Source: Corallococcus sp. AB011P
GTDB lineage: Bacteria; Myxococcota; Myxococcia; Myxococcales; Myxococcaceae
NCBI RefSeq assembly: GCF_003611605.1
Contig: NZ_RAVX01000011.1
Span: forward strand, 196,811-255,096
Length of the DNA stretch: 58,286 bases
Direction: 5' to 3'
Shown: positions 6,381 through 43,749 of the stretch, one piece after another
Layout of the letters: each line of letters opens with the position of its first letter
Numbering within the stretch: position 1 is the first letter of the stretch
Translations under genes and position numbers: made by a program
The notes under the pieces: model-generated
What the model saw: only the letters and a program-made list of their open reading frames with translations
Database searches by the model: none
What the model was told of the DNA's origin: nothing

Positions 6381-9300
6381 GGTCGGCTCATCCGGACGAG
6401 GTCGTCCTGGCTGCGGTCGGCGTGGAAGGGCGTGATGCCAATGGGCATGCTGTCGTCGGTGCGCGCCTGGAGTTCGCGCTCGTGGTTGGAGCGCTCGTCG
6501 TGGGCACCGGGGACTCCGCCGCGCTCGGAGGCGTGGAGCGCTTCGGGGCCGTTGTTGTCGCCCAGGACGAGGTAGCCCGGGTCCGTCTGGCGGTTCGACT
6601 GGAAGGACACGGTGTGCACCCGCGACTGGTGCGACACCGGAGGCTGTCCACCGCGCGCGAGGAGGCTGTAGCGCAGCCAGCCCAGGTCCGGCCGGTCCGT
6701 GCGCACCTCGCCCGCGAAGGCGCAGGAGGACGCCTCCAGCACGCCCGCCTCCGTGGCGCCCAGCACCGTGCAGTGCCGCAGCCGAACGCTCGCGCCCGCC
6801 GCGCGGATGGCGACGGCGTCACGGTCCCCCGCGTCGAAGGTGCAGCCCGCGGCGATGAGGTGCACCCAGGGCGGCAGCTCGATGGCGCCCACCATGCAGC
6901 CGTAGAGGCGCAGCTCCACATCAGCGGGAGGCAGGGAGCGCCGCGCGCTGATGTCCTGGTGCCCACCGCCGGGCATCCACAGTCCCACCTGTCCGGGCGC
7001 GCCCAGGCTGCACCAGCGCAGGTCCGCTTGCCCCCGAGCGAGCACCAGGTCCAGCCGTCCCGCGAGCCACAGGCCCGCGAGCCACACACGCGTGGCCGCG
7101 CTGCCTCCGAAGCCCGGGTAGAGCGCCAGCGAGAGGCCGTGCTCGTCCGCGCCGATGCAGGGCACCGCGCCCGTGTCCGCGGCGAAGAGGGACAGCCCGT
7201 AGTCCAGCCCCTGTGACAGGCGCTCCGGAGCCAGACGCGGCGAACCGATGAGGCCCAGAATCGGCGGCGATCCGGCTGGGCTCTCTTCTGCGAGGTTCGC
7301 GATATCCGGCGGCACCTGACCTTCAGTCGCGACCACCGAGGACGCGCCGGAGTCGAGACCTTGTGCGCCGACCGAGCCGATGGGTCGCGCCTGGCCTCCA
7401 GTCGCCAGCACCACGGACGCGCCGGAGTCGAGACCTTGCTCGATGGTCGCGACGATGGGCCGCTCCTGGCCTCCGGCCGCCAGCACTCCGCCCGCGCGCT
7501 CCGGGGAGATCCACGCGGTGACAGGGAGGCCGGTGCTGGAGCGGTCGCCAGGACGGTCCGGTGGGTCGATGAATGGGAAGTCCGGCTCCGCCCACGCCGC
7601 GGGCGGACGGCGGTCCGGCGGAAGCAGCCCCGCTCCCAATGAGGCGCCCCGCCCTACCCGCGCGGAGAGGGTGACGCGGCCCACGGGCGCGTCGTCCTGG
7701 AGCACGACGCGGCCCAGGCGCGGATCCACCGCGACGATGCCGGAGGCGATGCTCGGAGCGAGCGTCGTCCACGGGCCCAGGCTTCGCTGGCGCAACTGGA
7801 ACGGATGGCGCCGCAGCCGTCCGGGCACCGAGTAGCGCCGCGCGCCACCTGCGACGGAGGCATCCCGCGAGTGGTACGCGCCACCGGGCCGGGAATCGAG
7901 CGGGAGCGGCTGGCCCTCGCGAGGCTCGATGAACGCGGCGCCGTCGTTGGCGACGTTGAAGCGCAGGAGCTCATCCGGGAGCAGGGCCAGCTCTGGCAGG
8001 AACGCCAGGTAGCCGCGTCCGCCCAGTGAGAAGACGACCTCCGACGCGGGCAGCGGCGCCGGATCCACGAGGAGCACGCGACCATCGACGTACAGCGCTT
8101 CGCCCGGAACCGGCGGGTTCGAGCCCGAGGGCTCCAGCAGTCCCGCGACCCAGGCACCCTCGCCTGCCTTCAGCGTCATCCATTGAGGACGCGTCGTGTC
8201 CGCCCAGACAAGCGCCTCCACGCCGTCGGCGGTGGTGGTGGCCACGAGCGTGCCGGGCAGGTTCGCGGTGATGGGCAGCGGGGCCAGGGAACGCCAGACA
8301 GGGCTCGCGGAGGCCGGGTCGCAGGACATCACCGGCACGGCCAGTTCTCCCGTCACGGCCTCGCCGCCCAGGAGCATCAGTCCTTGCGCCGTGCTCAGCA
8401 GCGTCGCGGCCTTGCGCTCCTGGCGGTTGCGCACCGCATGGGGACGCCACGGTCCGCCCGTGACCGGCAGCGACCAGAGGTCTCCGGTGGGCGCGCCACC
8501 CAGGTCACCGCCAAAGACGAAGAGCCGGCCGCCGCGCACGCACAGGCTGGGGGCCAGTCGCGCCGCGGGCTGCCGGGGGCTCGTGGTGTCCAGCCGCGTC
8601 CCCGTCGGAGTCGCGGTGTCCAGGCCTGTCACCGACCACACACCCAGCTTCCCCGTACCGTCAGGTGCCACCAGCAACAGCGAGTCGCCAGCCGCGGCCA
8701 GGGACATACCGGGACCCTCCGGAGGCAACGCGCCGCTGAGCTCCGCCACCTGCCATGGCGCACCGTCGGCGCTCGCGTCGAAGCGGGCAAGGCGCAGGCT
8801 GCCGTCCGCGAGGTGTTGCTCGATGCGCGCGACCCATGCCGCACCGGCCAGGTCCACACGGACGGCGTTGCTGCGCGGAGGCCCCTGGCGCAGGCCCACG
8901 GCGAGGGTGCGCCACGTACCGTCCACGTCGCGCAGGCGCGGATCACCGCTCACGCGTTCGACGAGCAGCGCCGCCGTGGTGCCGCCCAGGAGCTGGTTCG
9001 CCTCCGGCGTGACGGTGACGGTGTTCAGGGCGTCCGACACCAGCTCGGTGGACAGGAGCACCGTGTCCGAGTTCTCACGCGCGGCGAGCAGCGTCAGTCG
9101 CCAGGTGTCTCCGGGCGAAGGCCTGCCCCGGTCCGCGAACCGCAGCGTGGGCGCGGGCCCCACGGGCGCGGTGGGCAGCGGTCCGCGCAGGAGCGGCAGG
9201 GCTTCCGGCCCCACCAGCGGAATGCCGTCGACGGAGACGGTGATGGCATCCGCGCGTTCGGCGGCGTCGGCGTCCTCGGCCAGCGCGGTGGGGGTGAGCA

Positions 9301-10168
9301 GCATCGCCGCCGTGCGTCCCGTGGCGAGCGACGGAGGCGCGGGCTCATGGCGCGCGGTGAGGCCTCCGGTGAGGTCCGCGCGCTCCAGGGGCTTGAGCCA
9401 CACCAGGGGACCATCGCGGTCCAGGGGATCCACGCGGAAACCCCGGTAGCCGTTGGGCAGCGCTTGCACGGTGGCTGGGGTGACGTCCTCCAACTCCACG
9501 GGCGTCAGGCGCGCGGTGCGGATGAGGGCGACGTCCGGACGTGCCCAGCCCAGCAGGTCCAGCGTGCGCGGCGTCGCGGCGACACGGCCCGCATCCGCGC
9601 TCCCCAACCGGCGCAAGGCCTGATCCAGCGTCTCTCCCGGCGCGATGCCAATGAAGGGGCCACGCTCCGGGACACCGTCGCGGGGACGCTCGATGCCAGG
9701 TGAGCGGCGGGTGAGCGGATCCGCGAGGCCGATGGGATCCCACATCACCGCGCTGCGACCGCGCCAGGGCAGCAGGTCATTGAGGTCCTGGGTCTCCAGC
9801 AGCGAACGGAAGGACTCGTCGACCTCCGCGTCCCAGAGGCTGGTGACGGAGAGCACCTCCTCCAGCGACGCGAGCGTGCCCTTCCGTCTGCGCCACGCCA
9901 CCGCGCGAGCCACCACGCCGCGCTGCACGCGAGGGTCGTCGGTGATCAGCCGTGCGCCCATCAACTCCGCGAGCAACGGCAGCGCCTGCGGGCCCGCGCG
10001 CTCCACGAAGTGATCATCCCAGAGCTGGTCCACCGCGCTCGCGAACGCGTCCAGTTCCATGCCCAGCACGGCGAGCAGCTTGAGGAGCGGCTGGTCCGCG
10101 AGCGTGGAGTCCCGCGCCGTGTAGAGGCCGGGGAGGAGCTGGAGCAGTCGCTGGGAGGGCCGGCTCAT
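6377..10168 (-). CDS. P2 gpI-like (Tail_P2_I family) baseplate or tail protein with Kelch-like repeats and a C-terminal beta-helix region (1263 aa).
   Basis: ORF 6377..10249. The start is chosen at the ATG at 10168 (MSRPSQRLLQLLPGLYTARDSTLADQPLLKLLAVLGMELDAFASAVDQLWDDHFVERAGPQALPLLAELMGA...RRKGTLASLEEVL). This N-terminus fits the LLP...LWD...LP.LA.l.G...kR...r.KGT pattern of phage P2 tail protein I. Further on come Kelch-like blades (GGRLFVFGGDLGG, LMLLGGEAV) and a C-terminus with IAAGCTFDAGDRDAVAIRAAGASVRL-type beta-helix motifs. Confidence 0.65.
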   Translation of the reverse strand: MSRPSQRLLQLLPGLYTARDSTLADQPLLKLLAVLGMELDAFASAVDQLWDDHFVERAGPQALPLLAELMGARLITDDPRVQRGVVARAVAWRRRKGTLASLEEVLSVTSLWDAEVDESFRSLLETQDLNDLLPWRGRSAVMWDPIGLADPLTRRSPGIERPRDGVPERGPFIGIAPGETLDQALRRLGSADAGRVAATPRTLDLLGWARPDVALIRTARLTPVELEDVTPATVQALPNGYRGFRVDPLDRDGPLVWLKPLERADLTGGLTARHEPAPPSLATGRTAAMLLTPTALAEDADAAERADAITVSVDGIPLVGPEALPLLRGPLPTAPVGPAPTLRFADRGRPSPGDTWRLTLLAARENSDTVLLSTELVSDALNTVTVTPEANQLLGGTTAALLVERVSGDPRLRDVDGTWRTLAVGLRQGPPRSNAVRVDLAGAAWVARIEQHLADGSLRLARFDASADGAPWQVAELSGALPPEGPGMSLAAAGDSLLLVAPDGTGKLGVWSVTGLDTATPTGTRLDTTSPRQPAARLAPSLCVRGGRLFVFGGDLGGAPTGDLWSLPVTGGPWRPHAVRNRQERKAATLLSTAQGLMLLGGEAVTGELAVPVMSCDPASASPVWRSLAPLPITANLPGTLVATTTADGVEALVWADTTRPQWMTLKAGEGAWVAGLLEPSGSNPPVPGEALYVDGRVLLVDPAPLPASEVVFSLGGRGYLAFLPELALLPDELLRFNVANDGAAFIEPREGQPLPLDSRPGGAYHSRDASVAGGARRYSVPGRLRRHPFQLRQRSLGPWTTLAPSIASGIVAVDPRLGRVVLQDDAPVGRVTLSARVGRGASLGAGLLPPDRRPPAAWAEPDFPFIDPPDRPGDRSSTGLPVTAWISPERAGGVLAAGGQERPIVATIEQGLDSGASVVLATGGQARPIGSVGAQGLDSGASSVVATEGQVPPDIANLAEESPAGSPPILGLIGSPRLAPERLSQGLDYGLSLFAADTGAVPCIGADEHGLSLALYPGFGGSAATRVWLAGLWLAGRLDLVLARGQADLRWCSLGAPGQVGLWMPGGGHQDISARRSLPPADVELRLYGCMVGAIELPPWVHLIAAGCTFDAGDRDAVAIRAAGASVRLRHCTVLGATEAGVLEASSCAFAGEVRTDRPDLGWLRYSLLARGGQPPVSHQSRVHTVSFQSNRQTDPGYLVLGDNNGPEALHASERGGVPGAHDERSNHERELQARTDDSMPIGITPFHADRSQDDLVRMSRP

Positions 10169-10373
10169 GGGGTCCGCACCTCCACGAGGAACAGCCTTGC
10201 GTCGCGGCCACGGGAGCCCGCCCTGACGCGGTGGCCGTCGGCCCTCCACGGCGAGGCATGGCTCAGAGGTCCCGAACTTCCTGTCGGACAGCTCAGCGCG
10301 TCATCCCCGCCATGGCGTCCCGCGCCAAGCCCCCGGACCTCAAGGCGGTCCCCCTCCCGCCCGGACCGCTCCC

Positions 10374-10398
10374 AACCTGTCCGACAGTCGGACAGGTT
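10374..10398. repeat. 25-bp near-perfect palindrome AACCTGTCCGACAGTCGGACAGGTT (arms of 11-12 bp).
   Basis: Read directly from the sequence. Its reverse complement is identical except for the central dinucleotide. Confidence 0.9.
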
Positions 10399-10513
10399 TC
10401 CGGGGCCCGGCGGGAGCGGGGGCGTCCCCCAGCCACACCGGCTGGCGCGGCAGGTCCGACAGGCAGCGTCCCGGGGAGCCCGACAGGCCCGGGAGGCCCC
10501 CTGCGGTCGTCCA

Positions 10514-10538
10514 AACCTGTCCGACAGTCCGACAGGTT
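10514..10538. repeat. Second copy of the 25-bp palindrome (AACCTGTCCGACAGTCCGACAGGTT), 140 bp from the first.
   Basis: Read directly from the sequence. It has one mismatch relative to the first copy. Confidence 0.9.
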
Positions 10539-10655
10539 CGTGCGGTGCGCCTCCATGGAGGGGCCCCAGTCGGGCTCCCACCTGTGCATCCACAGGGACG
10601 GAGTCCGTGTCCCGGGGCGTGAGGCAGCGCTTGTTCAGGCGCATCGAGGCGGGGC

Positions 10656-13157
10656 TCATAGGTCCTGGGCCTCCTCGTAGGTGAGCGCGACGCCATCGCT
10701 TTCTCCGGACGGCGGAGCCCATGCGAGCAGCTCGCCGGGCGCGGTGACGATGCGCTCGAAGAGGGCTGGCGGCGTGCCTTCGCGGTGCAGCCGCTGCACG
10801 ACCACTGAGCGCAGTCCCTCGATGCCCGCGAGCGCGCCGTACACGTCCGACAGTTGCAGGTCCTGTCCCAGCTCCACGCGGTCCGGATCCAGCAGGCCGG
10901 GCTCGCGCTCCGGGTCGCGGTCCACGCCCAACCGCAGGCGCGTCTCTTGAAGCACCGCGACCGGATCCGCGCCCTTCACCACGCGCAGCAGCACCCGCAG
11001 CCGCACCTCCACGCGCTGCCGGTTGGTCAGGTGCAGCTCCACCTTCGGCGCCACCCGTGCCGCCAGGTGCGCGTGGAGGGCTTCCAGGTCCGACGCGCCA
11101 AGGGCCGCTCCTTCTGGCCCGGAGACCACCACCTTCAACGAACGGCGGCGCACGCCGTCCCGGAACACGTTCGCGCGGTGCACTCCGTCGAACACCAACG
11201 TCAGCGCACGCACGTCCGAGAGAGACACGGCGCGGTCCATCGCGCCCACCGCCGCGGGCCCTCGCACGCGCGCCAGCGCCGGTGCCTCCGGATCTGTTCC
11301 TCCGGCCAGCGGCAACGGGTTGAACGTCTTCTCCACGCACGGATGCGGGCTCGCCATCGCCAGCAGCCGCAGCGCGGCCCGGTTGCCTCCCGTCCCTCTG
11401 CCCACGCGGTAGCGGACCCGCACCTCCGCGCCCAGGGGCAACGCCGAACCGTGCTCCCCTTCCCCGAAACGAAGCCTCGCGGCCCCGGCCGGTAGCGGCT
11501 CCACCGCGAAGGCCAGCTCATCCGGCGCGGCGTCCAACAACGAATCCACCGGATGCCACGCGCGTCCCCCCACCGTCAGGGACACTTCCGGGCGGCGGCC
11601 TCCCGCTCGGCTCGGGTCGCGCAGCCAGGTCACCGGTCCATGCAGCAGCGGCACCGTGCGCAGATCCAGCGCGGGCACGGCGACCTCCTCCACCGTGGAG
11701 CCCTCGCTGACGAGCGTGTTGTTGCCCAGCAGCACCACGCGATCCAACGCGTACGCGCGCGACAGCGGCGGCTGGAACGTCACCTGCGTCATCGGCGTGC
11801 GCTGACCGGGCGGGACCTCCGTGCGGACGCGCAGCACTCGCAGCGCTTCTCGGTAGAGCCGCTCCGTGCCCTTCGCTCCGCCGGGGCCCAGGCGCTCCAC
11901 GTCCTCGGCCAGCACGAACCAGTCTCCCGGGCGCACCGGTGGATCCTGCGAGGTGAGCCCGGAGGCATCCGTCAGCGGCGGCAGATAGAGGCTGTCCGTG
12001 CCAGATGCCGCCACGCCCAGCGGCCGGGCCACGCCCGCCTCCGCGCCAAAGGCCTGGTCCGCCCGGTTCAGCGCTTCACTGCCCTTGAGGATGACGAGTT
12101 GATCCCGCGCCTCCTGGATGAGGCTGTTCACGAAGGCATCCAGGAACGTGACCATCTTGTCCAACCGGACCGCGTGCACGGTCGGATCCTCGTCCGCGCA
12201 CGGGGCCAGCGCCTCCTCCAGCGCGGCCAGTGCGTCCGCCTGCCGCTTCTGCAAGTTCCGGAGCTGGCGGGCGAGGATCTCCTGCGACTCGGACAACGCG
12301 CCGACGGGACGGCCGGGCGGAGGCACGGCCTGCGCCACGACCTTCTGGGCCTCGCACAGTTGTTCGCAGAGCGCGTCCAGCGTGCTCTTGCACGCGGCAT
12401 CTCCACCCAGGTCCAGCGTCTTCATCAACGACGCCAGCTTGCGAGCATCCTGCTTCGCACGAGCCACCTGCCGTTCCTCCAGTGGACCGTGGCGCTGCAC
12501 CTCGATGCGCTCCTGGAGCCCCGCGACCACCGAGCCAGGCCCGAAGATTCCGCCCGTGGGCGCCGGAGCCCCGGGCTCACCCGGCTCGCCAGAAGGCGCG
12601 CCGGTCCCCCCACCCGTTCCACCCGTGCCCGTTCCCCCGCCCGTCCCGGCTCCAGCTCCGGTCCCTGCTCCAACCGGAGGAGGCAGGAACGCGCGAAGCT
12701 CGTTGAGCTCCGGCGACAGGCGCAGCGGCGCGAGCGTCTCGAACACGGCGGCGGTCTCTTCCCCTTCCGCCGCCGAATTCACCGCCGTTCCCGCGGACAG
12801 CGTGCCGCGCACGTTCGCCTTGCAGCGAAAGTGCTGGAGCCCCACCGCCGCGGTGCCCGGGCTCGGCCGATAACCGATGTGCCCGAGCAACTTGGAGACG
12901 GAGTCCTCCAGCCGCGCGGTGGCGAGGAAGCCCTCCTCCGCCCACGCCTGCTGATACGTCCACAGCACATGCAGCGCGAGCGCCACGCTGTCCAGCAGGC
13001 CCCGCCCCAGGTCCACCGAGGATGGCGCCGCGTACGCGAGAGGATTCCACGTGGGCGCCTCGTCCAGCCGGGCGTAGACGATGCGCGCCGACTCGCCCAG
13101 CCGGGTGCGGAGCTGATCATGCGTCAGCGCCTGGTGCGTGGAAGGAACGCGACTCAT
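10656..13157 (-). CDS. Second baseplate wedge protein of the gp6/gpJ type (a Baseplate_J-like paralogue), with an internal coiled-coil and a Gly-rich linker (833 aa).
   Basis: ORF 10656..13508. The real start is most likely the ATG at 13157 (MSRVPSTHQALTHDQL...), which overlaps the stop of the upstream gene as ATGA. The segment LLDSVALALHVLWTYQQAWAEEGFLATARLEDSVSKLLGHIGYRPSPGTAAV resembles the Baseplate_J core and parallels RDAQSLLAVMLERARTVMAPW...DSLAYQQERAVVEGFLEDARL in the neighbouring J protein. A G/T-rich low-complexity linker (GAGTGAGAGTGGGTGTGG) is followed by a heptad-like helix (ERQVARAKQDARKLASLMKTL). Confidence 0.45.
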   Translation of the reverse strand: MSRVPSTHQALTHDQLRTRLGESARIVYARLDEAPTWNPLAYAAPSSVDLGRGLLDSVALALHVLWTYQQAWAEEGFLATARLEDSVSKLLGHIGYRPSPGTAAVGLQHFRCKANVRGTLSAGTAVNSAAEGEETAAVFETLAPLRLSPELNELRAFLPPPVGAGTGAGAGTGGGTGTGGTGGGTGAPSGEPGEPGAPAPTGGIFGPGSVVAGLQERIEVQRHGPLEERQVARAKQDARKLASLMKTLDLGGDAACKSTLDALCEQLCEAQKVVAQAVPPPGRPVGALSESQEILARQLRNLQKRQADALAALEEALAPCADEDPTVHAVRLDKMVTFLDAFVNSLIQEARDQLVILKGSEALNRADQAFGAEAGVARPLGVAASGTDSLYLPPLTDASGLTSQDPPVRPGDWFVLAEDVERLGPGGAKGTERLYREALRVLRVRTEVPPGQRTPMTQVTFQPPLSRAYALDRVVLLGNNTLVSEGSTVEEVAVPALDLRTVPLLHGPVTWLRDPSRAGGRRPEVSLTVGGRAWHPVDSLLDAAPDELAFAVEPLPAGAARLRFGEGEHGSALPLGAEVRVRYRVGRGTGGNRAALRLLAMASPHPCVEKTFNPLPLAGGTDPEAPALARVRGPAAVGAMDRAVSLSDVRALTLVFDGVHRANVFRDGVRRRSLKVVVSGPEGAALGASDLEALHAHLAARVAPKVELHLTNRQRVEVRLRVLLRVVKGADPVAVLQETRLRLGVDRDPEREPGLLDPDRVELGQDLQLSDVYGALAGIEGLRSVVVQRLHREGTPPALFERIVTAPGELLAWAPPSGESDGVALTYEEAQDL

Positions 13158-16100
13158 CGCAGGCCTCCGCACACCTGCACGGTGAGGACGCCTTCCGAAC
13201 CCGGCCAATAACCACCCCGAGCGGTGGCCACCTCGTCCGGTCCAATGGGAATGACGCCCGCCTCCAGCCGCTCCTGCGCGTGGGGCTCCAGCCGGCGGAA
13301 GCGCTTCACCCGCACCGCCGTCACACCCGGTACACGCAGCACCGCCTGGTACAGGTCCGCGAGCTGCACGTCGCCGTTCAGGCCAGAGCGGTCCGGATCC
13401 AACAGGCCGCCGTCCCCAGCGATGGCGCCCACCACCGCGTCGCGCACCTGGTCGGCCTGCGCATGCGGCTCGGCATCCACCTCCAGGTCCAAGTCGAGCG
13501 GCACCCACTTGGGCGGCAGCGCCTCCACGTCCACGCCCAGCAGGCGGATTTCCTCCAGCCGGCTGCGCACTCCAGCCCAGCGGCGAAGCAGCTCGTCGCG
13601 GTCGAGTGTGTCCTCGTCGCGCAGCAACACCGTCACGCGGATGACCGTGCGCAGGTCCCGGTCCACGGCGCGCGCCGAAGCCCCCGCCACCTCCGGCATC
13701 TGCTGGAGCATCCGCACGTAGTCATCGACCGTGACGGCGGACAGCGGCTGCGACACGCCCGCCGGTGCGCGGTAACGAAGGGAGTCGAGCGACTCCGCGT
13801 CGCGTCCCCCCACCGCAGGCAGCGGGTTATCCACGCGCACCAACGCGCGCACGTCGTCCATCGACTGGGCCAGCAGCTCGCCCGCGGACGCGGAGCGCTG
13901 CGGATCCAACGGCACCTGGAGCAACCGCGTGAGCACGCCCTCCCCCACGTTGGCCACCGTCCCCAGCCCGACGCGCAGCGACAGTCCCAGCGTCGTCTCC
14001 CGAGGCGGCAGCGCGGCGCCGTTGACGCCATCGCCCCAGCGAAGGCTGGCGCCACCCGTGGGCGTCGCGCGCAGCACGAACACCTCATCCCCCGGCCCCT
14101 GGACGGACAGGTCGTCCACCAGCGTCCAGGGGTCGTCCTCCACGCTCACCTGGAGCTGGGGTGTCCCGCGCCGCGACGTCTCCTCCGGCAGTGGATACCC
14201 GGAGGCCTGGACGCTGACTGGATGGAACGGCAGGGCGAACTCGCGCTCCTCGCTGCCGTCCACCACCGGGGACAGCAACGCGCGCCACTGCGCGAGGCTG
14301 CGCGCGAAGGGCTCCGCCGAGTCCGCCTCGAAGCCCTCTGGAAGCGGCGTCACCGGCAGCCCGTGATGCGCGGGCACCACGTTGCCCAGCACCGTCGCGC
14401 GAGGCCCGGGCGCGGGGTCTCCCGGTGCCAGGAATACCTCCGGCGCGAACCTGCGCGGGTCCCACCCGACGAAGGTCGTATCGGTGGCGAGCGCCACGGA
14501 CGTCACTCGCACCACGTGTCCGCCCTCGCCGCGGCCCTGGTAGAGGATCAGCCACCGGCCGGGCTCCAGCTCCGGGTACAGGCCCGCGAGCGTGGCGCCC
14601 GTGTCCCCCAACTGCACGGACTCCGCGAGCGTCACGGCCTCCAGCCGGGGGAAGTACGACAGGGGCGACTCGGTGACGAACACCAGCGAGTGCTCGTCCG
14701 TGGAGCCATTCGCCACCAGCGTTTCGGCGGGAATCTCCAGCACGCCGCCACCGGTGAGGAACTCCAGCGCGGTGGTGCCGGGCGGCAGCACTGTCAGGTT
14801 CAGTTCCTCCAGCCGAGCCTTCACCAGCGCCGCGAGTGCCTCCGGATCCAACCTGAACCGCAGCATCACCGTGGCGGAGAGCCCCGGGTCCGGCACGCAA
14901 TCCAGCCCGCGTGCGTGGTCCTCCACGGAGCGCCGCAACCGGGCATCCTCCAGGAAGCCCTCCACCACCGCGCGCTCCTGCTGGTACGCCAGCGAGTCCA
15001 GCTGCGCGGCCACGGCCTCCAGCAACATGGTCGTGAAGTCCGCGGGCCCCCGGTCCTCCCACGGCGCCATCACCGTGCGGGCCCGCTCCAGCATCACCGC
15101 CAGCAGCGACTGCGCGTCGCGGGCCCGGTAGTCCACCAGCGCGCCAGGCGCCGGCCGCTCCGGGGCCGCGAGCCACGGGCGCGGCTGCGGATCCCGCACG
15201 TCACAGCCCGGCACCACGTCCGGAGCCCACGCGCCAATGAACGGCGCCGGGTCACGAGGACCATCGCCCGGAACCGGCACGGCCGCGCGCGAGATGGCCG
15301 CATCCGGCACCAGCCGCAGGTCCACGGTCTCCGGTGGCGGCAGGCCGCCGGTGAGCAACACGGGAGGGACCTCCGGAGTCCCCGGCGTCCGGTACGGCAG
15401 CGGCCCCACCTCCAGGAACGGCGGGGCCGCGCCCTGCGCGAACAGCGCGGGCGATGCGGACAGCTCCGCGTCTGGCTCCAGCACGAAGGGCGCGCCCACG
15501 ATGGCCGTGAAGAGCGAGTCGTACGCGCGAATCTCCCCGGGTCCCAACCGCAGCCCATGCGCATGCCGGTGCCAGGTGAGCTGCGCGAGCAGCAGCTGCT
15601 CCGCCTGGAGCCAGCCCGCGTGCACCGACGTCCAGGCCTCGGTGCGCCGCACCAGCGCCGTGCGCAACCCGCCCTCCAGCTGCAACGCGGTGCCGGTGAT
15701 GACGAAGAGGGAGCAGTCCTCGACGGCGATCTCCCCCGGCGTGCCCACGTCCAGCACCGGCTCCAGGCCGCCCAGCGGCGCGGCCACGTGCAGGCCCACG
15801 ACGTCCGCATCCATGGGAAACCCAGGCAGCGTCAGCGGCCCCACGACCGAAGCAGACAGTGCATCCAACGCGACGGAGAGCCAATCCGACCACGCCGCAG
15901 CGGGCTGCGCGGACACCGGCACGGGCGCCGCCGACACACGGCTCACCTCCACGTCGCGAACCACCACCGGCTCCAGCGAAGGTCCCCCCAGCACCCGCAT
16001 GCCCGTGGCGCGCGTTCCGGCGGCGATGTCCTCCACCTGGCCCATGGCCACTTCGATGCTCCGCCCACCCAGCGCGAGCACGCCCATCGGGAACCCGCCC

Positions 16101-16921: not shown

Positions 16922-17292
16922 GGCGGCGCCTCCAGGTCCCGGCGGAACAGCTCCGCGTGCTCCTCACCCGTCGCCAGCAGCGTGTAGAGGATGTCCACGT
17001 AGAGCGTCGCGTCCTCGGCGCTCACCTTCACCGCGTCCAGGCGCACCTGGTCGCGCATGAACTCCTGCACGTTGAGGCGGATGACGTACTCGGCCGTGGC
17101 GGCGGCCTCCGGGCTCGCGGCACCGAACACCATCCGCTGCACGCCGCACCCGAAGCGCGGCCGGTTCACCCGCTCCCCGGGCAGCGTGAAGAGCAGCTGC
17201 TCCAACTGCTGGCGGATGACCTGCGAGGGCCCCACCGTGCGCGGCGTGCCCAGGTCTCCCAGTTGGAAGGGGAAGTACAGGCCGCGTCCCAT
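16918..17292 (-). CDS. gp25/gpW-like baseplate wedge protein (GPW_gp25 lysozyme-like fold), 124 aa.
   Basis: Within ORF 16918..17763 the real start is at 17292 (MGRGLYFPFQLGD...), overlapping the stop of the upstream gpD-like gene (TGATG). The motifs LLFTLPGERVNRPRFGCGV and ATLYVDILYTL match the gp25/TssE consensus (T.pGER..rP.fG; EPR/Y...i.Y). Confidence 0.8.
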   Translation of the reverse strand: MGRGLYFPFQLGDLGTPRTVGPSQVIRQQLEQLLFTLPGERVNRPRFGCGVQRMVFGAASPEAAATAEYVIRLNVQEFMRDQVRLDAVKVSAEDATLYVDILYTLLATGEEHAELFRRDLEAPP

Positions 17293-18479
17293 CACGCCAC
17301 CCCGTTGAGCGCGTCGCGCGCCAGGTCCACGTCCACTTCGTAGCGAGCCAGCGCCTCCGCCCACACCCAACGGTGCCGGGCGCCGCGCACGTACCAGGTG
17401 CCATCCATCAGCTTGCCCGCCCCCACGAGCCCCACCGGACGCCGGGCGCGGAGGATGCGCTCGTAGCGCAGGCCCTGCACCGTGCCGTTCGCCTCCGCGA
17501 GCCAGTCCGCCTCGCGGTAGTCCGACCACGCCAGGTTCTCCACCTCCGGCACGTCGTGCGGCACGTCCACGTACTGCAGGCCCACCGCCTTCGTCTGGGG
17601 CCGCTTCGGCAGCACCGCCGCCATGCGCGCCTTCAGGATGTCCGCGCGGCCGGTGGGCCCCATGCGAGGAAAGCGAGGCGCCGTCACCGTGGCGGAGCGG
17701 ATCCGCCGGGTGCGCTCGTCGATGTGCTCCCCGTGCAGCTCCGTGGGGCGGTGGCTCTCCCAACGCGCCTTGAGCTCGATGACGGACGGCGTGGAGCGAG
17801 GGATGAGCGACAGGTCCGGCTGCTTCGGGCCGTCCGGCCGGGGCAGGTGGAAGTGGCCCACGCTCTCCGGCGCCGCGTTGGCGCCCGCGCCCACCGGCCC
17901 CGGCTTGCGCTCCACGAAGGCCTCATAACCGTTGCGCCGCGCGAGCCACCGGAGGAGCGACGCGTCCGTGCCACGCTGGAGCACCACCGCCCGCGCCGGG
18001 TCGCGCACGGGCGCCGTCTCCTGCACGTCCAGCGCGAAGCCATATTCCCCATACACCTGCCGCACGATGCCCGCGTCGGACAGGCCGCTGAACGAGCGCG
18101 TGCGCTCCTCCAGGTGCATCAGGCACGACGCGTCCAGCCCGTACACCTCCAGCGACGAGTCCGGCACGCGCGAAGGGCCGAAGTACGGCTCCACCGCGGT
18201 GATGTAGCCGTCGAACACCACGTCCTGCACGTCCGGCGCCTCGCTGTCCGGAGCGCCCAGCCCGAAGCTGATGGTGACGCGCTTGAGCAGCGCGAAGCGC
18301 CCGTCCGCCAGCGCGTCCCAGTCCCCCGAGTCCGTGGGCGCCATGTCCAGGGACAGGTGGAAGGACGACGCGTCGTCGGTGCGCTCATCCACCTCCAGGC
18401 GCGACACCCGGCCACGGGCGTCCGTCATGGGCAGCCCGTCGATCCACAGCTGGAGGAACGCCGCGCGCTGCTCCGCCAT
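17292..18479 (-). CDS. P2 gpD-like (Phage_GPD late control D family) tail hub or spike-base protein, 395 aa. No gp5-like needle or beta-helix domain is present.
   Basis: Within ORF 17292..18566 the start is at 18479 (MAEQRAAFLQLWIDGLPMTDARGRVSRLEVDERTDDASSFHLSL...), overlapping the gpX-like stop (TGATG). Its length and position (after the LysM-like gpX, before the gp25-like gene) match gpD of P2 and R-type pyocins. GC3 is high. Confidence 0.65.
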   Translation of the reverse strand: MAEQRAAFLQLWIDGLPMTDARGRVSRLEVDERTDDASSFHLSLDMAPTDSGDWDALADGRFALLKRVTISFGLGAPDSEAPDVQDVVFDGYITAVEPYFGPSRVPDSSLEVYGLDASCLMHLEERTRSFSGLSDAGIVRQVYGEYGFALDVQETAPVRDPARAVVLQRGTDASLLRWLARRNGYEAFVERKPGPVGAGANAAPESVGHFHLPRPDGPKQPDLSLIPRSTPSVIELKARWESHRPTELHGEHIDERTRRIRSATVTAPRFPRMGPTGRADILKARMAAVLPKRPQTKAVGLQYVDVPHDVPEVENLAWSDYREADWLAEANGTVQGLRYERILRARRPVGLVGAGKLMDGTWYVRGARHRWVWAEALARYEVDVDLARDALNGVA

Positions 18480-18757
18480 CAGGGCTTCTCCGGGATGAAC
18501 AGCACCGTGCCCGGCTCCAGGAGCGCCTCGGGCTCGAAGGTGGGGTTGGCGTCCACGATGCGCCACGCCTGGAACGGGTCGCTGAAGTAGCGCTGCGCGA
18601 GCAGGTCCAACCGGTCCCCCGCCACCACCTTGTGCAACAGCGACGTGGGCACGCGCGGCGCCACGCGGGGCACGTACAGCGACACCGTGGAGCCCTCCGG
18701 GCCCAGCGGCACCGCGTACGTCGGCAGGTCCTTGTGTCGCGAGGAGGGGTCGCTCAT
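18479..18757 (-). CDS. Phage tail protein X-like small LysM-fold protein (92 aa).
   Basis: HKVVAGDRLDLLAQRYFSDPFQAWRIVDANP matches the LysM-like core of P2 gpX (Phage_tail_X). Its position immediately upstream of the gpD-like gene matches pyocin and P2-like tail modules. Confidence 0.65.
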   Translation of the reverse strand: MSDPSSRHKDLPTYAVPLGPEGSTVSLYVPRVAPRVPTSLLHKVVAGDRLDLLAQRYFSDPFQAWRIVDANPTFEPEALLEPGTVLFIPEKP

Positions 18758-18767
18758 GGCCGTCTCT

Positions 18768-19496
18768 TCAGCTCGCCCCGTCGAGCTTCACCTGCGGCGC
18801 CAGGGCCTGCGCGATGAGGGTGCTCGCGTCCGCGCCCTTCACCGCCGCCAGGTCCTCCATCCGCAGGCGCTGGTCGCGCAGGTTCGCGAACGCCTGGGCC
18901 ACCTTGTTGTTCGCCGCGTTCTCCCCCACCTCCAGGATGCGCATGCGCAGGTCCACCTCCGCGCGCAGCGGGAATAACGCCGGGTCGAATCGCTGCTCCA
19001 CGATGGTCATCCCGGTGATGACCACCGGGAAGGTGCGCGGCCCCAGCATCAAGAGCAGCTCCGTGGGGTTGAGCGAGACGAGCTTCGTCGCGGGCTTCTT
19101 CTCCTCGTCCCCTGTCTGGTCCTTGCCCAGCGCCATGCCCTCCAGCACGGCCAGCTCCGGCAGCACGCCCTGGACGCCCTCCCCCACGGTGTCCCGCAGC
19201 AGCGCCTCCGTCACGTCGAAGACGAGCTTGAGGGCAATCGTCTCGCTCTTGGCGTGCAGGCCGCCGCCGCGCTGGCCGTCGGTGAGGATCTTGGTCTGCT
19301 CGGGCGTCTTGCCGGGCTTCGTCTCCCACTGGCCCGCGCGCGTGCGCGTCACCGTCTCCGGGTTGTACTGGAAGCGCAGCGCGATCACTCCCGGCTCGGC
19401 CTTCGGGTCGGCGGACGACGGCGGCAGCGTCACCAGCATGCCCTTCTGGAGCTGCTGGTCGAACGCGATGAGCGTCGGGTCCAGGTTGCGCGTCAT
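18768..19496 (-). CDS. Conserved contractile-tail protein, possibly the tube-initiator (Afp7 N-terminal or gpU-position) protein, 242 aa.
   Basis: IALRFQYNPETVTRTRAGQWE resembles the FxFNPE signature recalled for eCIS tube-initiator proteins. In Afp7 the equivalent domain is fused to LysM; here a separate LysM-like gene follows directly. The start overlaps the stop of the 70-aa ORF (ATGA). Confidence 0.35.
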   Translation of the reverse strand: MTRNLDPTLIAFDQQLQKGMLVTLPPSSADPKAEPGVIALRFQYNPETVTRTRAGQWETKPGKTPEQTKILTDGQRGGGLHAKSETIALKLVFDVTEALLRDTVGEGVQGVLPELAVLEGMALGKDQTGDEEKKPATKLVSLNPTELLLMLGPRTFPVVITGMTIVEQRFDPALFPLRAEVDLRMRILEVGENAANNKVAQAFANLRDQRLRMEDLAAVKGADASTLIAQALAPQVKLDGAS

Positions 19497-19705
19497 CCGT
19501 TGCCCCGGGCGCCGGCCGGCTCGCGCTGGGCGAGGCTCCGGGCAATGGCTTCGTTGTTCTTGTCCATCAGCGCCACCATCGTCTGGGTGAACAGCTTCAC
19601 GAACTCCTTGGGGTCATCCGGCACGCTGCGCAGCATCCACGCGAGCTCACGCTCCATCTCGCGACGGGTGAGTCCGACCTGTCCTTGCACCGGGGGTGGG
19701 GCCAT
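19493..19705 (-). CDS. Small helical hypothetical protein (70 aa) in the tail operon.
   Basis: High GC3. It is translationally coupled to the downstream gene. A GAGAGGA Shine-Dalgarno sequence lies 9 nt upstream. It is in the same frame as the upstream 291-aa ORF, separated by a TGA-C stop plus 6 codons. Confidence 0.45.
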   Translation of the reverse strand: MAPPPVQGQVGLTRREMERELAWMLRSVPDDPKEFVKLFTQTMVALMDKNNEAIARSLAQREPAGARGNG

Positions 19706-19723: not shown

Positions 19724-20599
19724 TCAGCTCCAGCCATCCACCAGCGGACGGCCTTCCAGCTCGTTGCGAAGCAGCTCCAGGTAGCGCCACCGCCGGGCCC
19801 TCGGCAGGGACAGGATGTCCGCCTCAGACCAGTGGTAGTGGAAGGCCAGCACGTGCACCTCTGTCTCCAGCCGCGCCGCCCCGCCCCGCAGCTCGCGAGC
19901 CAGCAGCGCGAACGGATCCAGCTCCAGCTCCAACCACGCGGAGCACCTCGGACAGCGCGCCAGCAGCCCCAGGTCCGGCGCGGACGTGCCGTCCGCCAAC
20001 GCCAGCGCCACCGCGTGCCGTGAGCGCGCGGGCAGCGCCAGCCACGCGGAAGGGCTCAGCGCCTGCCCGTCCACCACCACCAGCCGCGACCACATGAGCG
20101 CGGACCGCTCCGCCCGCGTGCCATGCGCCTCCGCGAGCAGCGCGTCGTCCTCGCCCGTGGGCTCACGCACCTCCGCCCGTCCCTCCGGCAACGCCACGGT
20201 GAGCACCTCCGGCGCCGCGTCCACCCGCTCCGGTGAGAGCGCGGAGAGCCGCACGTCCACGTCCGCCATCGCCTCGCATCCGGGCGCCGGGCAGCGCGCC
20301 ACCAGCGCGACGCGGTCCCCGTACATCCGGGCCCGCAGGTGCAGCGCCAGGTGGTGCCGGTCTCCGCGCGTGAGGCAGGCCGCCAGCTCCGCGTCCACGC
20401 GCGGGTAGTCCCCCAGCCGTCCCAGACACGCCGCCAGCCACCCGCTCACCGCGCGCGGGCCGGGACGCTCGCCGGCCTGGGCCAGCGCCCACTCCTCGCG
20501 GCCGGTGAGCGGGCGCAGCTCGCCCAGGCGGTGACAGCGGCCGTCCTCGTCGAAGAGGCCGTGCGGCAGCAGCACCGGGATGGGAGGTTCCAGGAGCAC
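19724..20599 (-). CDS. Hypothetical Cys-motif protein (291 aa) downstream of the tube genes; possibly an assembly factor.
   Basis: High GC3. Cys pairs at CPAPGCEAM and CPRCSAW suggest a zinc-ribbon-like site. No family was recognised. Confidence 0.5.
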   Translation of the reverse strand: MLLEPPIPVLLPHGLFDEDGRCHRLGELRPLTGREEWALAQAGERPGPRAVSGWLAACLGRLGDYPRVDAELAACLTRGDRHHLALHLRARMYGDRVALVARCPAPGCEAMADVDVRLSALSPERVDAAPEVLTVALPEGRAEVREPTGEDDALLAEAHGTRAERSALMWSRLVVVDGQALSPSAWLALPARSRHAVALALADGTSAPDLGLLARCPRCSAWLELELDPFALLARELRGGAARLETEVHVLAFHYHWSEADILSLPRARRWRYLELLRNELEGRPLVDGWS

Positions 20600-24017: not shown

Positions 24018-25976
24018 TCAGATGGTCCCGCGCCTGGCGGTATCGACTTCGGTGACGGATGTTCCCGGGTGGCCGCTGGCGCCTCGCGCTGCGCCCCGCG
24101 CGATGAGGTCCAGCTGGGGCGTCTCGACGAGGCGGGCGGTGGTGCGCGCGTTCGGCTCGTCCATCAGCGCGGAGACCCGGTAGTCCACGCAGCAGCGGTA
24201 CAGGTGGTTCAAGAGGTCGTCGCGGCGGCGCAGCTGCGTCTGGAAGAAGAAGCACTCCTCCTGGAACACGAGCGTGCGGCCCCGGGCCCAGGCGCCCTCC
24301 ACGGGGCGGCTGAGCGTCACGGTGTCGCCGTCCAGCCCCAGCACCAGCGCCTGGAAGCGCTGCTTGCCCACGCGGTAGCCGTCCTCGCTCGACCCCAGCA
24401 CCACCACGTCGCCGGGCTTGAGGCGCGAGGCCGCGGTGACAGAGCGGCGCAGCGCGGGGTCCAGCGGCCCCACGGGCTCCGCCACCAGGTGCACGTGGTC
24501 CACCGTGAAGTCCAACGGCGTGCCCGCCTGCGCCCCCAGCGTGAGCACCATGTCGCTCGCGGCGACGGTGACGCCCGGCGCGGCGACGGGCGGCGCGGGA
24601 GTGGCGTCCACGTCCTGGAGCGGCTGCGGCGCCCCATCCGCCGACAGCCACACCACGCCCTCCCCCGCCTCCAGCCGCGCGTGCAGCACCACGCCGGCCT
24701 CCAGCCGCTCCGCCGGAAGCCGCCAGCGCGTCTCCGCGACCTGCGTCCCGGGGGCCTGCGCCAGCGTCGCGGTGGCCACCACCTCGCCCATGAGCCGGGT
24801 GTCCACCTGCACGTAGCGGACGATGAGCCGCAGCACGGGCTGCCCCTGCGCCATCAGCACGGCCACCGGCAGCGTCTGCGCATCCACTGCGCCAGCGGCG
24901 ACGCTCAGCCCCAGCGACAACGCCAGCCCGTCCGGGGCCGGATTGTCGGCGTGGAAGGGGTCGGGCACGGCCGGCATGGGGTAGACGAGGACGGAGGCGG
25001 TGCCGGTGCCGGACAGGCGCAGGCCGTCGGTGCCGGGCAGGAAGGACGCGCCGGGCGTCAGGTCCACACGTCCGCCGCGCGCGCGCTCCAGGTTCTGGTC
25101 GCTGGCCTCCAGGTGCACCAGGGACAGGACCGTGGTGGGCTCACCGCGCGTCAGCAGGCGCACCGTCGTGGCGCCTTCGGGCACGTCCTCGGCCAGCAGC
25201 GACGGGCGCAGCACCATCTGCCCACGCGTGGGGATGGAGAGCGCCAGTGTGTCCATGATGGACGCCAGGTCCACCTGCGAGCCCGCCCACAGGTCCACCT
25301 GCACGTCGATGGCCATGGCCTTGGGCGCGCGGATCTTGCTGAGGAACACCCGGCCCTCTTGAGAACGCTCCGGAGGCTCCAGGCCCAGTGCTCCTTCGAT
25401 GCCGCCGGTGACGGGCAGCACCTCCACGCTGGAGCGGAACTCCATGGAAGGGATGCCCGCGTCGGAGCTGAGCGCGAGCCGGCTCCCCTCCACGTCCCAG
25501 CGCGCGATGACGGCGGCGAGCGCCTCCAGCAGCAGGGGGTCCGTGAGCGGCGCGCCCGTGGGCTCCTGGAAGAGTCCACCGGTGAGCGCGTCCGCCAGCC
25601 GCGCGTTGATGGCGGCGGCGAGCGCGGGGCCGGTCGCGGCGGAGGCAAACGAGCCACCCGGCAGGCCCGTGAGGGTGACGGTGGCGCGGCCATCCAGGCG
25701 CAACTGGAGCGAGCCATTGGGGGGCACGCTGTCCCCGGAAGCGCGAGGCCTGCCGACGAGGTAGCCCGGCACGCGGAAGGTGGCGACGCCCGTGCGGCCG
25801 TTCTCGCGCTCGGGTTCGGGGAACAGGCCCAGCGGACCGACGACGGAGAGGAACGGCACGCGCGAAGGCCGGTAGCCCTCATCCACGTAGCCATGCGCGG
25901 CGAAGACCCGCACGTCGCCGCTGCGCAAGGCCATACGGCCCTGCCATAACAAGCCGCTGAGGATCTCGCGAATCAC
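24018..25976 (-). CDS. Hypothetical beta-rich protein (652 aa) and first gene of the tail-like operon. Function unknown; not recognisably a tape measure, ATPase or cap protein.
   Basis: High GC3. It lies 10 bp upstream of the sheath gene. Its composition is G/V/T/L-rich and non-helical. No family was recognised. Confidence 0.55.
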   Translation of the reverse strand: MIREILSGLLWQGRMALRSGDVRVFAAHGYVDEGYRPSRVPFLSVVGPLGLFPEPERENGRTGVATFRVPGYLVGRPRASGDSVPPNGSLQLRLDGRATVTLTGLPGGSFASAATGPALAAAINARLADALTGGLFQEPTGAPLTDPLLLEALAAVIARWDVEGSRLALSSDAGIPSMEFRSSVEVLPVTGGIEGALGLEPPERSQEGRVFLSKIRAPKAMAIDVQVDLWAGSQVDLASIMDTLALSIPTRGQMVLRPSLLAEDVPEGATTVRLLTRGEPTTVLSLVHLEASDQNLERARGGRVDLTPGASFLPGTDGLRLSGTGTASVLVYPMPAVPDPFHADNPAPDGLALSLGLSVAAGAVDAQTLPVAVLMAQGQPVLRLIVRYVQVDTRLMGEVVATATLAQAPGTQVAETRWRLPAERLEAGVVLHARLEAGEGVVWLSADGAPQPLQDVDATPAPPVAAPGVTVAASDMVLTLGAQAGTPLDFTVDHVHLVAEPVGPLDPALRRSVTAASRLKPGDVVVLGSSEDGYRVGKQRFQALVLGLDGDTVTLSRPVEGAWARGRTLVFQEECFFFQTQLRRRDDLLNHLYRCCVDYRVSALMDEPNARTTARLVETPQLDLIARGAARGASGHPGTSVTEVDTARRGTI

Positions 25977-37091: not shown

Positions 37092-38075
37092 TCACTCGCC
37101 CGGCCCCACGAAGGCGCCCAGGTCCACCTGGTAGAACTGCGACAGCGTGCGCCACTCCATGGAGTCCTTGCGCTCCCAGTGCTCCTGGATCTCCCCCACG
37201 TGGCGGTTGAGCAGCGCGCCGAACGACGAGAACAGCTCCGGCAGGTAGCGCCGCGGGTCGAAGTCCTCCAGCGTCCGGAGCACGTCGTCGCTCACCAGCG
37301 CGGCCTTCTGGAAGTCCCCGCGCTCCACCAGCACCTCGAAGGCCTTGAGCTTGTCGCACAGCTCCAGCAGGTGCGCCGACCCGCGCAGCTGCAGCGGCCC
37401 CGTCGTGCGGGGGAACGACGGAGGTGGCGCGGCGGCCTTCGCGCTCCGTCCCTTCGCGGGAGCGGCCGGCTTCGCGGGCTCCGGGGCCGGTGCGGGAGCG
37501 GCCGCGCGCTCCAGCGTCTCCTTCAGCCACTGTCCCAGCCCCGCCAGGCCCTGGGCTCCGTTGCGGAACGCGGAGCCCTCCAGCGCGCCCTGCAGGGTCT
37601 GGATGCCGCGCAGGGCGTCCTTGCGCTTGCCGTCCGTGAAGCCCTTCGTCCACGCCTCCCAGCCCGCGTCCTTCTTGCCGTGGTGATACTTCAGCGCGCT
37701 CAGCAGCGTCTGGAACAGCCACGTCAGCGCCTTGTTGAGCAGCACCGCGGGCTTGGACTTGTCCTTCCCTTCGCCCTGGGCGGCCTCCTCCGCCGCCGCG
37801 CGCGCGAGCGCGACCAGCACCTCCAGCACCTCCGGCAGGCGCACGAGCCCGTCTTCGCGCAGCGCCGCGAAGAGGTAGTAGGCCGACAGCCGGACCTCGT
37901 AGACCCCTTCACCGTCCAGGGCCTCGATGGCGTCCGCGGCCTCCGCGTAGGACTCCCGCTGCACCAGGTCCGCCACCGTGAGGAAGCGCTGATCATGCGA
38001 CTCCAGGCGCTCCAGCGTTCCGCCCTCCACGGGGCGCAGGCACAGGCTCAGGTCTCTCATGGTCTGTCTTTCCAC
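37092..38075 (-). CDS. Hypothetical T6SS-associated protein (327 aa); possibly TssA or ImpA_N-like.
   Basis: The call rests on its position between tssG and tssBC. The N-terminal LSLCLRPVEGGTLERLESHDQRFLTVADLV only loosely resembles ImpA_N. There is an Ala/Pro/Lys-rich linker (APAPAPEPAKPAAPAKG). Confidence 0.3.
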   Translation of the reverse strand: MERQTMRDLSLCLRPVEGGTLERLESHDQRFLTVADLVQRESYAEAADAIEALDGEGVYEVRLSAYYLFAALREDGLVRLPEVLEVLVALARAAAEEAAQGEGKDKSKPAVLLNKALTWLFQTLLSALKYHHGKKDAGWEAWTKGFTDGKRKDALRGIQTLQGALEGSAFRNGAQGLAGLGQWLKETLERAAAPAPAPEPAKPAAPAKGRSAKAAAPPPSFPRTTGPLQLRGSAHLLELCDKLKAFEVLVERGDFQKAALVSDDVLRTLEDFDPRRYLPELFSSFGALLNRHVGEIQEHWERKDSMEWRTLSQFYQVDLGAFVGPGE

Positions 38076-38114
38076 TTCATGTTACATGTCTTTCATTCAC
38101 AAGGACAGACGCCC

Positions 38115-43143: not shown

Positions 43144-43170
43144 CGGCGGACCGACGGGGGAACGGCGCGC

Positions 43171-43749
43171 ATGCCCAAGCTCATCTGCATCATCGACATG
43201 GACAAGGAGAAGGGCCTCATCCTCACCACGGAGGACAAGGACGGGAAGATCCTCCAGACGGTGAAGATGGACGGCGAGGCCATCACCCTGGAGGTGAAGG
43301 GCGACAGCGCCACCAGCACCATCGTGCAGAAGCAGGACAGCGTCACGGTGACCTGCAAGTCCTTCGTGCTGAAGGCGGAGACCATCGAGGTGACGTCCAC
43401 GAAGGCGTCGTCGTGGAAGAGCGACGACACGTTCGCTCTGGAGAGCGCCAAGGCCTTCACGGTCACCACGAAGGACGCGCTGACGCAGACAGCGGCGAAG
43501 GACGCGACCCTCTCCTCGGACGAGGCCGTGACGCTGAAGGCGGCGAAGAAGTTCACCGTGGAGGGTGACGACATCCAGGTGGAGGCCAAGAGCGGCGCGG
43601 TGGCGTTGAAGGCCCCGTCCGTCAAGGCGGAGGGACAGAAGGACATCGCCATGGAGGGAGCGCAGGTGAAGGTGACCGCGAAAGCGAAGCTGGCGCTCAA
43701 TGCGGACGGCGTGGCGGAACTCAAGGGCAGCATGGTGAACGTGGGCTGA
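43171..43749 (+). CDS. Hypothetical K/T/A-rich protein with a repetitive beta-strand motif (192 aa) between tssK and tssL.
   Basis: High GC3. It has periodic segments (VTLKAAKKFTVEGDDIQVEAKSGAVALKAPSVKAEGQKDIAMEGAQVKVTAKAKLALNADG). It has no transmembrane segment and no signal peptide. Confidence 0.5.
   Translation: MPKLICIIDMDKEKGLILTTEDKDGKILQTVKMDGEAITLEVKGDSATSTIVQKQDSVTVTCKSFVLKAETIEVTSTKASSWKSDDTFALESAKAFTVTTKDALTQTAAKDATLSSDEAVTLKAAKKFTVEGDDIQVEAKSGAVALKAPSVKAEGQKDIAMEGAQVKVTAKAKLALNADGVAELKGSMVNVG

Follow-up and report, generated by a model that had tools for sequence, protein, structure and literature searches.

The stretch of Corallococcus sp. AB011P DNA analysed here (58,286 nucleotides, contig NZ_RAVX01000011.1, positions 196,811 to 255,096; hereafter the window) carries the operon of a contractile injection system (CIS) and raises the question of how a baseplate is completed whose hub protein appears to have no needle. 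Three minus-strand genes at 17292-19496 encode a putative tube initiator of 242 aa, a LysM/gpX-like protein of 92 aa and a gpD-type hub of 395 aa. A first-pass annotation, made from the DNA letters, had proposed that initiator and LysM functions are divided between two genes, that the hub is needle-less with no gpV or PAAR gene in cis, and that the particle has either a blunt hub or a tip recruited in trans. The three genes, the split of initiator and LysM and the needle-less hub are upheld by the present analysis; the blunt hub and the tip in trans are not, as relatives carry a spike gene in the same operon. With a probability of roughly 85%, the three genes form the central module of the baseplate in a lineage II-type CIS, whose needle is encoded by a separate gp5-type gene located distally in the same operon.

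The operon is a single long minus-strand unit, delimited by Pfam matches and by selection of open reading frames (ORFs) on GC content at third codon positions (GC3), which runs from about 25976 to base 3 and is cut by the left edge of the window. Its last gene, encoding a giant protein, is still open at base 3, so the operon continues beyond the window, and genomes of relatives were searched for the continuation with the last 800 aa of the truncated giant ORF. Thirteen loci were recovered, from 11 named Corallococcus strains, one Myxococcaceae metagenome-assembled genome and one Micromonospora. Eight of them reach past the position of the edge, namely seven from Myxococcaceae (six of these named Corallococcus) and the one from Micromonospora. 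Five loci (L005, L006, L008, L012 and L017) are collinear with window positions 3-13130, which hold the second J-like gene (J'), the gpI-like gene and the giant gene, with protein identities of 78-94% in Corallococcus and 37-41% in Micromonospora (L017).

In the five collinear loci the giant gene continues for about 1.2 kb beyond the counterpart of window base 3. It is followed in the Corallococcus loci by a gene for a helical protein of 113-124 aa, which has no family match and no detected counterpart in the Micromonospora locus, and then by a spike gene of the gp5 type. The spike protein has 395 aa in the Corallococcus loci and 406 aa in Micromonospora, and matches the Pfam families Phage_base_V (6e-24 to 8e-24; oligonucleotide/oligosaccharide-binding (OB) fold), Gp5_trimer_C and Gp5_C (beta-helix repeats). 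By tblastn the gene is present in 8/8 loci that extend far enough; the Myxococcaceae copies are 93-96% identical, the Micromonospora copy 58%. In the closest relative, L006, whose giant protein is 92.5% identical to that of AB011P, the spike gene occupies 14190-15374; base 3 of the window corresponds to position 12400 of this locus, so that the equivalent gene of about 395 aa would start about 1.8 kb and end about 3.0 kb past the left edge in AB011P. The missing needle is very probably an artefact of the window edge. The earlier statement that no gpV exists in cis gives way to this gp5-type gene in every readable relative, and the choice between a blunt hub and a tip in trans loses its basis with such a spike gene so close by in the relatives.

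The relatives' spike aligns to residues 375-533 of Alg8 and to positions 371-454 of the NCBIfam model NF033848 ('VgrG-related'). Of the 581 residues of Alg8, the hub family profile covers 16-197 and, with a weak alignment, 294-338; the hub matches NF033848 at positions 65-173 of 547. The two proteins are thus complementary and correspond to the two halves of an Afp8/Alg8-type spike.

The hub itself was examined for a concealed needle. The longest ORF of its gene has 424 aa from a GTG; the ATG at 18479 was taken as the start because the 89 homologues are mostly 393-405 aa long, with some fragments and several longer proteins (415-454 aa) as exceptions. The hub is 95% identical to a Corallococcus caeni protein. 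The match to Phage_GPD in Pfam is sub-threshold (20.5 bits, cut-off 30.1), and many orthologues carry a precomputed PF05954 assignment. The AlphaFold2 (AF2) model of the hub has a predicted local distance difference test score (pLDDT) of 90.8 and a predicted template modelling (TM) score (pTM) of 0.88. Its Foldseek matches include 7b5h_AJ (E 3e-25), 7aef_q, 9gtr_q and Pvc8. Against the fused spikes of extracellular CIS (eCIS) and of type VI secretion systems (T6SS), which have 527-641 aa, the TM score is 0.74 by query (TMq) and about 0.5 by target (TMt), while against the hub-only proteins Mu gp44, MuSo2 and the pyocin R2 hub TMt is 0.62-0.74 (0.65-0.68 for Mu gp44 and the pyocin R2 hub). As the hub fold takes in the entire chain and the fused spikes are only half covered, the protein is predicted to be a gp27-only hub. 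A gp5-like OB fold or beta-helix was sought inside the chain: Phage_base_V and Gp5 families gave no Pfam match to it, and neither fold occurs in the model. The description of the 395-aa protein as needle-less is correct as judged from the predicted structure.

There is likewise no room for a gpV or PAAR gene beside the hub. From the 70-aa gene and the initiator onwards the successive junctions are ATGA, a 10-nt gap, TGATG (LysM/hub), TGATG (hub/gp25) and GTGA (gp25/J-like), which leaves no coding space among the hub, gp25 and first J-like genes. Translation of the hub and gp25 genes is coupled, as is that of gp25 and the J-like wedge gene. Among 115 ORFs of 60-330 aa in all frames of window positions 1-27000, none matches the PAAR_motif, DUF4280, Phage_base_V or Gp5 families of Pfam. 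The 9 kb that follow the giant gene of C. exercitus likewise yielded no PAAR gene, and the earlier call of no PAAR in cis holds for both regions.

Several smaller proteins were considered and dismissed. The 291-aa, 70-aa and 652-aa products of the operon have only faint T4_baseplate or DUF6760 matches, or none, and taking one of them for a hidden spike is needless now that a gp5-type gene is found in relatives. Gene calls of 70 aa and 144 aa in the metagenome locus L003 are C-terminal fragments of the two J-like genes and not PAAR or gpV genes, and a 96-aa protein of L004 is helical and belongs to no family. An ORF of 146 aa at 16964-17404 is an out-of-frame artefact rich in Arg, Gly and Ala; gp25 is encoded by the frame of 124 aa.

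The 242-aa protein contains LRFQYNPETVTRTR, and F42, Q43, N45 and P46 of its FQYNPE motif, reported by the first-pass annotation, are invariant across 36 homologues. An exact look-up of the protein returned no record, nor did one of a Micromonospora homologue (P0203). The CIS_tube match in Pfam scores 27.3 bits with a cut-off of 27. Sequence and profile searches of its family against PDB sequences returned noise only, and the fold was therefore tested by AF2 and Foldseek. The model, built with the 36 homologues, has a mean pLDDT of 75 and a well-predicted beta core. Compared with the PDB by Foldseek, it has baseplate tube initiators in all 15 top places (E 2e-7 to 7e-4); the TM scores, 0.35-0.45, are modest. 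They include the eCIS proteins Alg7 (7aeb_M), Pvc7 (9qgl_7A and 6j0n_b), Anabaena (7b5h_AK), Streptomyces Cis7 (9gtp_M) and Afp7 (6rbk_A), and the phage or pyocin proteins of cyanophage A-1(L), P1, pyocin R2 (6u5b_g), phiCD508 and phi812. The identification as a tube initiator stands on this predicted fold. The model has disordered insertions and ends in helices (190-232) at the place where Afp7-type proteins have their LysM domain. LysM gave no Pfam match in the 242-aa protein nor in any of the at least 120 homologues listed (235-296 aa), so that the separation of initiator and LysM is a trait of the lineage and not a local accident. The LysM domain is encoded by the next gene.

For that 92-aa protein the domain matches are sub-threshold: Phage_tail_X in Pfam has an E value of 9e-4 and 19.2 bits (cut-off 22), and LysM, with 3.6e-3, also lies under its gathering cut-off. 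The PHROGs profile phrog_46 ('baseplate hub') matches at 1.4e-6, and a weak phmmer alignment (E 0.022) links the protein to residues 183-233 of 9gtp_P, the C-terminal LysM of this 240-aa chain from the Streptomyces CIS. A gene for 90-95 aa occupies this position in every relative examined, and one orthologue, that of L004, carries PF05489. In the structure of P2, gpU, gpX and gpD are separate proteins, and gpX is a LysM 'glue' protein present in six copies between hub and wedges; its fold is usually the C-terminus of the eCIS initiators, and the R2 pyocin encodes its glue protein between initiator and hub (bioRxiv 10.64898/2026.09.14.750843).

By analogy with these systems, the tube would be seeded by six copies of the 242-aa initiator, resting on a trimeric 395-aa hub. 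The 92-aa LysM protein, also in six copies, may serve as 'glue' between the hub and the wedges made of gp25, J, J' and I, in the manner of gpX in P2 and the R2 pyocin. The trimer of the gp5-like spike, presumably encoded past the left edge, would dock by its OB folds under the hub trimer, as do T4 gp5 on gp27, P2 gpV on gpD and Mu gp45 on gp44.

Some points weigh against this assembly. The spike gene is not in the window itself (tblastn), and its presence in AB011P is deduced from relatives. The LysM and Phage_GPD matches lie under the Pfam gathering cut-offs and CIS_tube only reaches its own. The window and the Corallococcus flanks gave no match to Afp15, Afp16 or PAAR, so that assignment to a named eCIS subtype is not secure. 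For Afp15 (AAA) and Afp16 (DUF4255/Pvc16_N) the regions searched were window positions 1-27000 and 13.5-22.4 kb of L008; an ATPase with a faint Pvc16_N match adjoins the module in the Mesorhizobium relative only.

A blunt particle, in which the tube ends distally in the hub trimer and the system works without a needle, would agree with the lack of a needle domain in the hub and of any gpV, gp5 or PAAR ORF in window positions 1-27000. It is nevertheless extremely improbable: the gp5-type gene is highly conserved in the same operon of all eight readable relatives, which belong to two phyla, its product aligns to exactly the part of Alg8 that is absent from the hub, and contractile systems that lack a spike are not known. 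Hardly more credible is the loss of the distal spike gene from this particular genome, which would make the cluster a decaying remnant. It draws on the fact that the window stops short of the spike position; the genes within the window are, however, all intact, tightly coupled and of coding-type GC3, and in the relatives the spike is the best-conserved gene of the distal segment.

Completion of the hub or spike in trans, by the DUF4280 protein and/or the 201-aa VgrG-like protein of a nearby T6SS, is improbable as well. The two systems lie only about 6 kb apart, and the CIS operon and the 9 kb downstream in C. exercitus hold no match to a PAAR family. The T6SS, located at about 32-49 kb beyond a histidine-kinase gene, is of the Francisella type: besides the DUF4280, IglI-family, IglE_N and small VgrG-like proteins it comprises VipA, VipB, TssE, TssF, TssK (VasE), DotU and IcmF. 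The spike complex of Francisella is formed by PdpA, VgrG and the PAAR-like IglG (PMC5924787). The DUF4280 gene, put forward earlier as the nearest candidate for a tip in trans, abuts TssF within such a system, where a DUF4280 PAAR-like protein is native, so that it has a partner of its own. Further arguments against a tip in trans are that the same CIS module is kept in the Mesorhizobium and Micromonospora relatives (CIS genes alone compared), that the CIS has its own spike gene, as seen in relatives, that spikes of the P2 gpV or Mu gp45 type need no PAAR, and that PAAR is absent from R-tailocins (PMC10598620) and from eCIS of subtype IIb (PMC6899500).

The separate, distally encoded gp5-type spike thus remains the preferred explanation, and the C-terminus of this spike deserves a remark. 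In the relatives' spike (L008:14199-15386 in C. exercitus) the beta-helix repeats are followed by a very hydrophobic region of about 130 aa (…SPMVLGDGLAIHFTMLAQILKAVNPMTVAAYGPLLDVWAAMTPMLDWSYFGFVKRMPVG), which has no family match and is conserved in Micromonospora. Downstream of the spike the relatives encode a protein of 544-556 aa, which looks hydrophobic and rich in coiled coils, and one of 723-739 aa; no family was assigned to either. The hydrophobic terminus and the downstream genes could form a PAAR-independent tip and cargo module. As no PAAR was detected in the operon, the spike might also be capped, either by the T6SS DUF4280 protein shared between the two machines or by its own hydrophobic terminus as a membrane-active substitute for PAAR, an elaboration that we consider unlikely.

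The features of the operon and the T6SS genes referred to above are summarized in Table 1. The GC content of the window is about 72%, and the GC3 of the three genes in 17292-19496 is 0.86-0.98, typical for coding sequence. The gene order of 652-aa protein, sheath, two tubes, proteins of about 290 aa and 70 aa, CIS_tube, protein of about 92 aa, hub, gp25, J, J' and I is conserved in the loci compared (C. caeni, Mesorhizobium and metagenome contigs; hubs 41-95% identical). The module is conserved from Myxococcota to Mesorhizobium, and this conservation probably extends to Micromonospora, from which a CIS_tube homologue was recovered.

Table 1. Coordinates, strand and supporting matches of the CIS operon genes and of selected T6SS genes in the window
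Feature	Position	Strand	Matches and remarks
652-aa protein, first operon gene	24018-25976	minus	conserved; no family
Sheath, 775 aa	21680-24007	minus	Phage_sheath_1 and Phage_sheath_1C
Tube, 187 aa	21117-21680	minus	Phage_T4_gp19 1.7e-19
Tube, 163 aa	20601-21092	minus	Phage_T4_gp19 1.7e-29
291-aa conserved protein, two Cys pairs	19724-20599	minus	faint: DUF6760 2.6e-3, phrog_150 baseplate hub 0.015
70-aa conserved helical protein	19493-19705	minus	overlaps start of tube initiator (ATGA)
Predicted tube initiator, 242 aa	18768-19496	minus	CIS_tube; C-terminal helical extension in place of LysM
Stand-alone LysM/gpX-like 'glue' protein, 92 aa	18479-18757	minus	Phage_tail_X, LysM, phrog_46
Predicted gp27/gpD-type hub, 395 aa	17292-18479	minus	AF2 and Foldseek; no needle domain (OB fold, beta-helix)
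gp25/gpW sheath initiator, 124 aa	16918-17292	minus	GPW_gp25 3.8e-13
First J/gp6-like wedge, 1255 aa	13154-16921	minus	Baseplate_J 2.6e-7; TIGR02243 2.3e-37; long N-terminal extension
Second J/gp6-like wedge, ~824 aa	10656-13130	minus	TIGR02243 6.9e-43; phrog_219 and phrog_6 baseplate wedge
gpI-like wedge/fibre-adaptor with Kelch repeats, 1290 aa	6377-10249	minus	Tail_P2_I 4.2e-7; TIGR02242 1.1e-4
Giant protein, >2272 aa, probably fibre-like	3-6818	minus	Beta_helix and DUF6519; 3' end cut by window edge
DUF4280 PAAR-like (IglG-like) protein	31944-32432		Pfam 3e-35; abuts TssF
IglI-family protein	37092-38081		IglI_fam 4e-71
201-aa needle-only VgrG-like protein	43144-43749		weak match to Francisella VgrG
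IglE_N lipoprotein	48386-48928		4e-31

The 652-aa protein has no match in Pfam, NCBIfam or PHROGs; its orthologues at the same position have 652 aa in Corallococcus, 679 aa in Mesorhizobium and 659 aa in a metagenome relative. The T4_baseplate match of the 291-aa protein is faint in relatives. The 70-aa gene is kept at its position in L001, L002 and L004, and in L003 it forms a single ORF of 354 aa with the 291-aa gene (L003:5677-6741). The two genes occupy the slot in which phages have tail-assembly chaperones and the tape measure; no recognizable tape-measure gene was found in the part of the operon within the window. In the first J-like wedge, an N-terminal extension of several hundred residues, rich in short V/T/G-containing repeats, precedes the Baseplate_J/TIGR02243 region, and the Mesorhizobium orthologue is longer still (1545 aa).

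Between the second J-like and the gpI-like genes lies a gap of about 400 bp inside the operon (10250-10655). It contains two copies of a 25-nt palindrome, AACCTGTCCGAC-A-GTCGGACAGGTT (10374-10398 and 10514-10538), as well as GTCCGACAG half-sites. The palindromes could be an internal operator, a terminator or an element resembling repetitive extragenic palindromes (REP). A 78-aa gene called in the matching region of C. caeni (L001) was rejected since it sits on palindromic intergenic repeats.

Further observations concern the region towards the T6SS. The CIS and the T6SS are neighbours here, about 6 kb apart, whereas eCIS and T6SS are reported to share a genome only rarely (Chen et al. 2019, PMC6899500). 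A 346-aa protein (29327-30367), encoded in the interval from the histidine kinase to the T6SS, has a weak match to TraB (NF033763, 2.9e-5, far below the cut-off), the myxobacterial outer-membrane-exchange protein.

The locus represents a well-conserved, uncharacterized myxobacterial CIS with a baseplate centre that appears to be built from stand-alone parts resembling those of P2 and the R2 pyocin, and its importance is small for now. In practice it teaches that an operon cut by the edge of a window does not permit a call of absence in cis. Of modest use to specialists are the apparent lack of PAAR together with the unusual hydrophobic spike C-terminus, and the position of a CIS cluster beside a Francisella-type T6SS despite the rare co-occurrence of eCIS and T6SS.

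Among known systems, the solved eCIS particles provide the best structural matches, Afp7, Pvc7, Alg7 and Cis7 for the 242-aa protein and Afp8, Pvc8, Alg8 and Cis8 for the 395-aa protein. The beta-barrel fold of the Afp7/Pvc7-type initiator is shared by the model of the 242-aa protein, which is without the C-terminal LysM that these initiators have in the same chain. Fused spikes of the Afp8/VgrG type share the gp27-like hub domains with the 395-aa protein, and their OB fold and beta-helix are absent from its chain. Both the Afp7-type and the Afp8-type fusion are thus represented here by separate genes.

The division of Afp8 into gp27 and gp5 is already documented for lineage II eCIS, and the arrangement is a known variant: eCIS of the IIa, IIb and IIc subtypes have afp8 divided between a gp27 and a gp5 ORF, two copies of afp11 occur in IIa and IIc, and afp10 (PAAR) is present in IIa, IIc and IId and missing from IIb (Chen et al. 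2019, PMC6899500). The operon shares with lineage II eCIS a sheath, two gp19-type tubes, a LysM protein, a gp27-type hub, gp25, a gene of the Tail_P2_I type and the lack of a recognizable tape measure. It further shares with IIa and IIc two J/Afp11-like genes (TIGR02243 on the 1255-aa and 824-aa proteins). A gp27 ORF lies in the window and a separate gp5 ORF, outside the window, in 8/8 relatives that reach past its edge. It differs in that PAAR (Afp10), the AAA ATPase (Afp15) and the DUF4255 cap (Afp16) are not seen in the window or the Corallococcus flanks, and in that the relatives' gp5 gene lies four large genes past the hub, after the fibre-like genes, and not beside the hub.

In P2 and the R2 pyocin the spike gene V is directly upstream of W, whereas the present W overlaps the preceding D by 1 nt and the relatives' spike gene stands at the far end of the operon. 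P2 gpV has 211 aa; the relatives' spike, with 395 aa, belongs to the gp5/VgrG type and has beta-helix repeats. Wedge proteins here far exceed those of P2 and the R2 pyocin in size, and similarity to gpD at the sequence level stays below threshold. Phage Mu differs in that gp43 keeps a LysM module within the initiator's helix-rich domain, and resembles the present system in its hub-only gp44 (TMt 0.65) and separate spike gp45. As in the present operon, P2 and the R2 pyocin have initiator (gpU or ripcord), LysM glue and hub as three proteins, a hub with the gp27 fold only and a separate spike gene, and the gene order of the R2 pyocin, initiator, LysM, hub, is the one found here.

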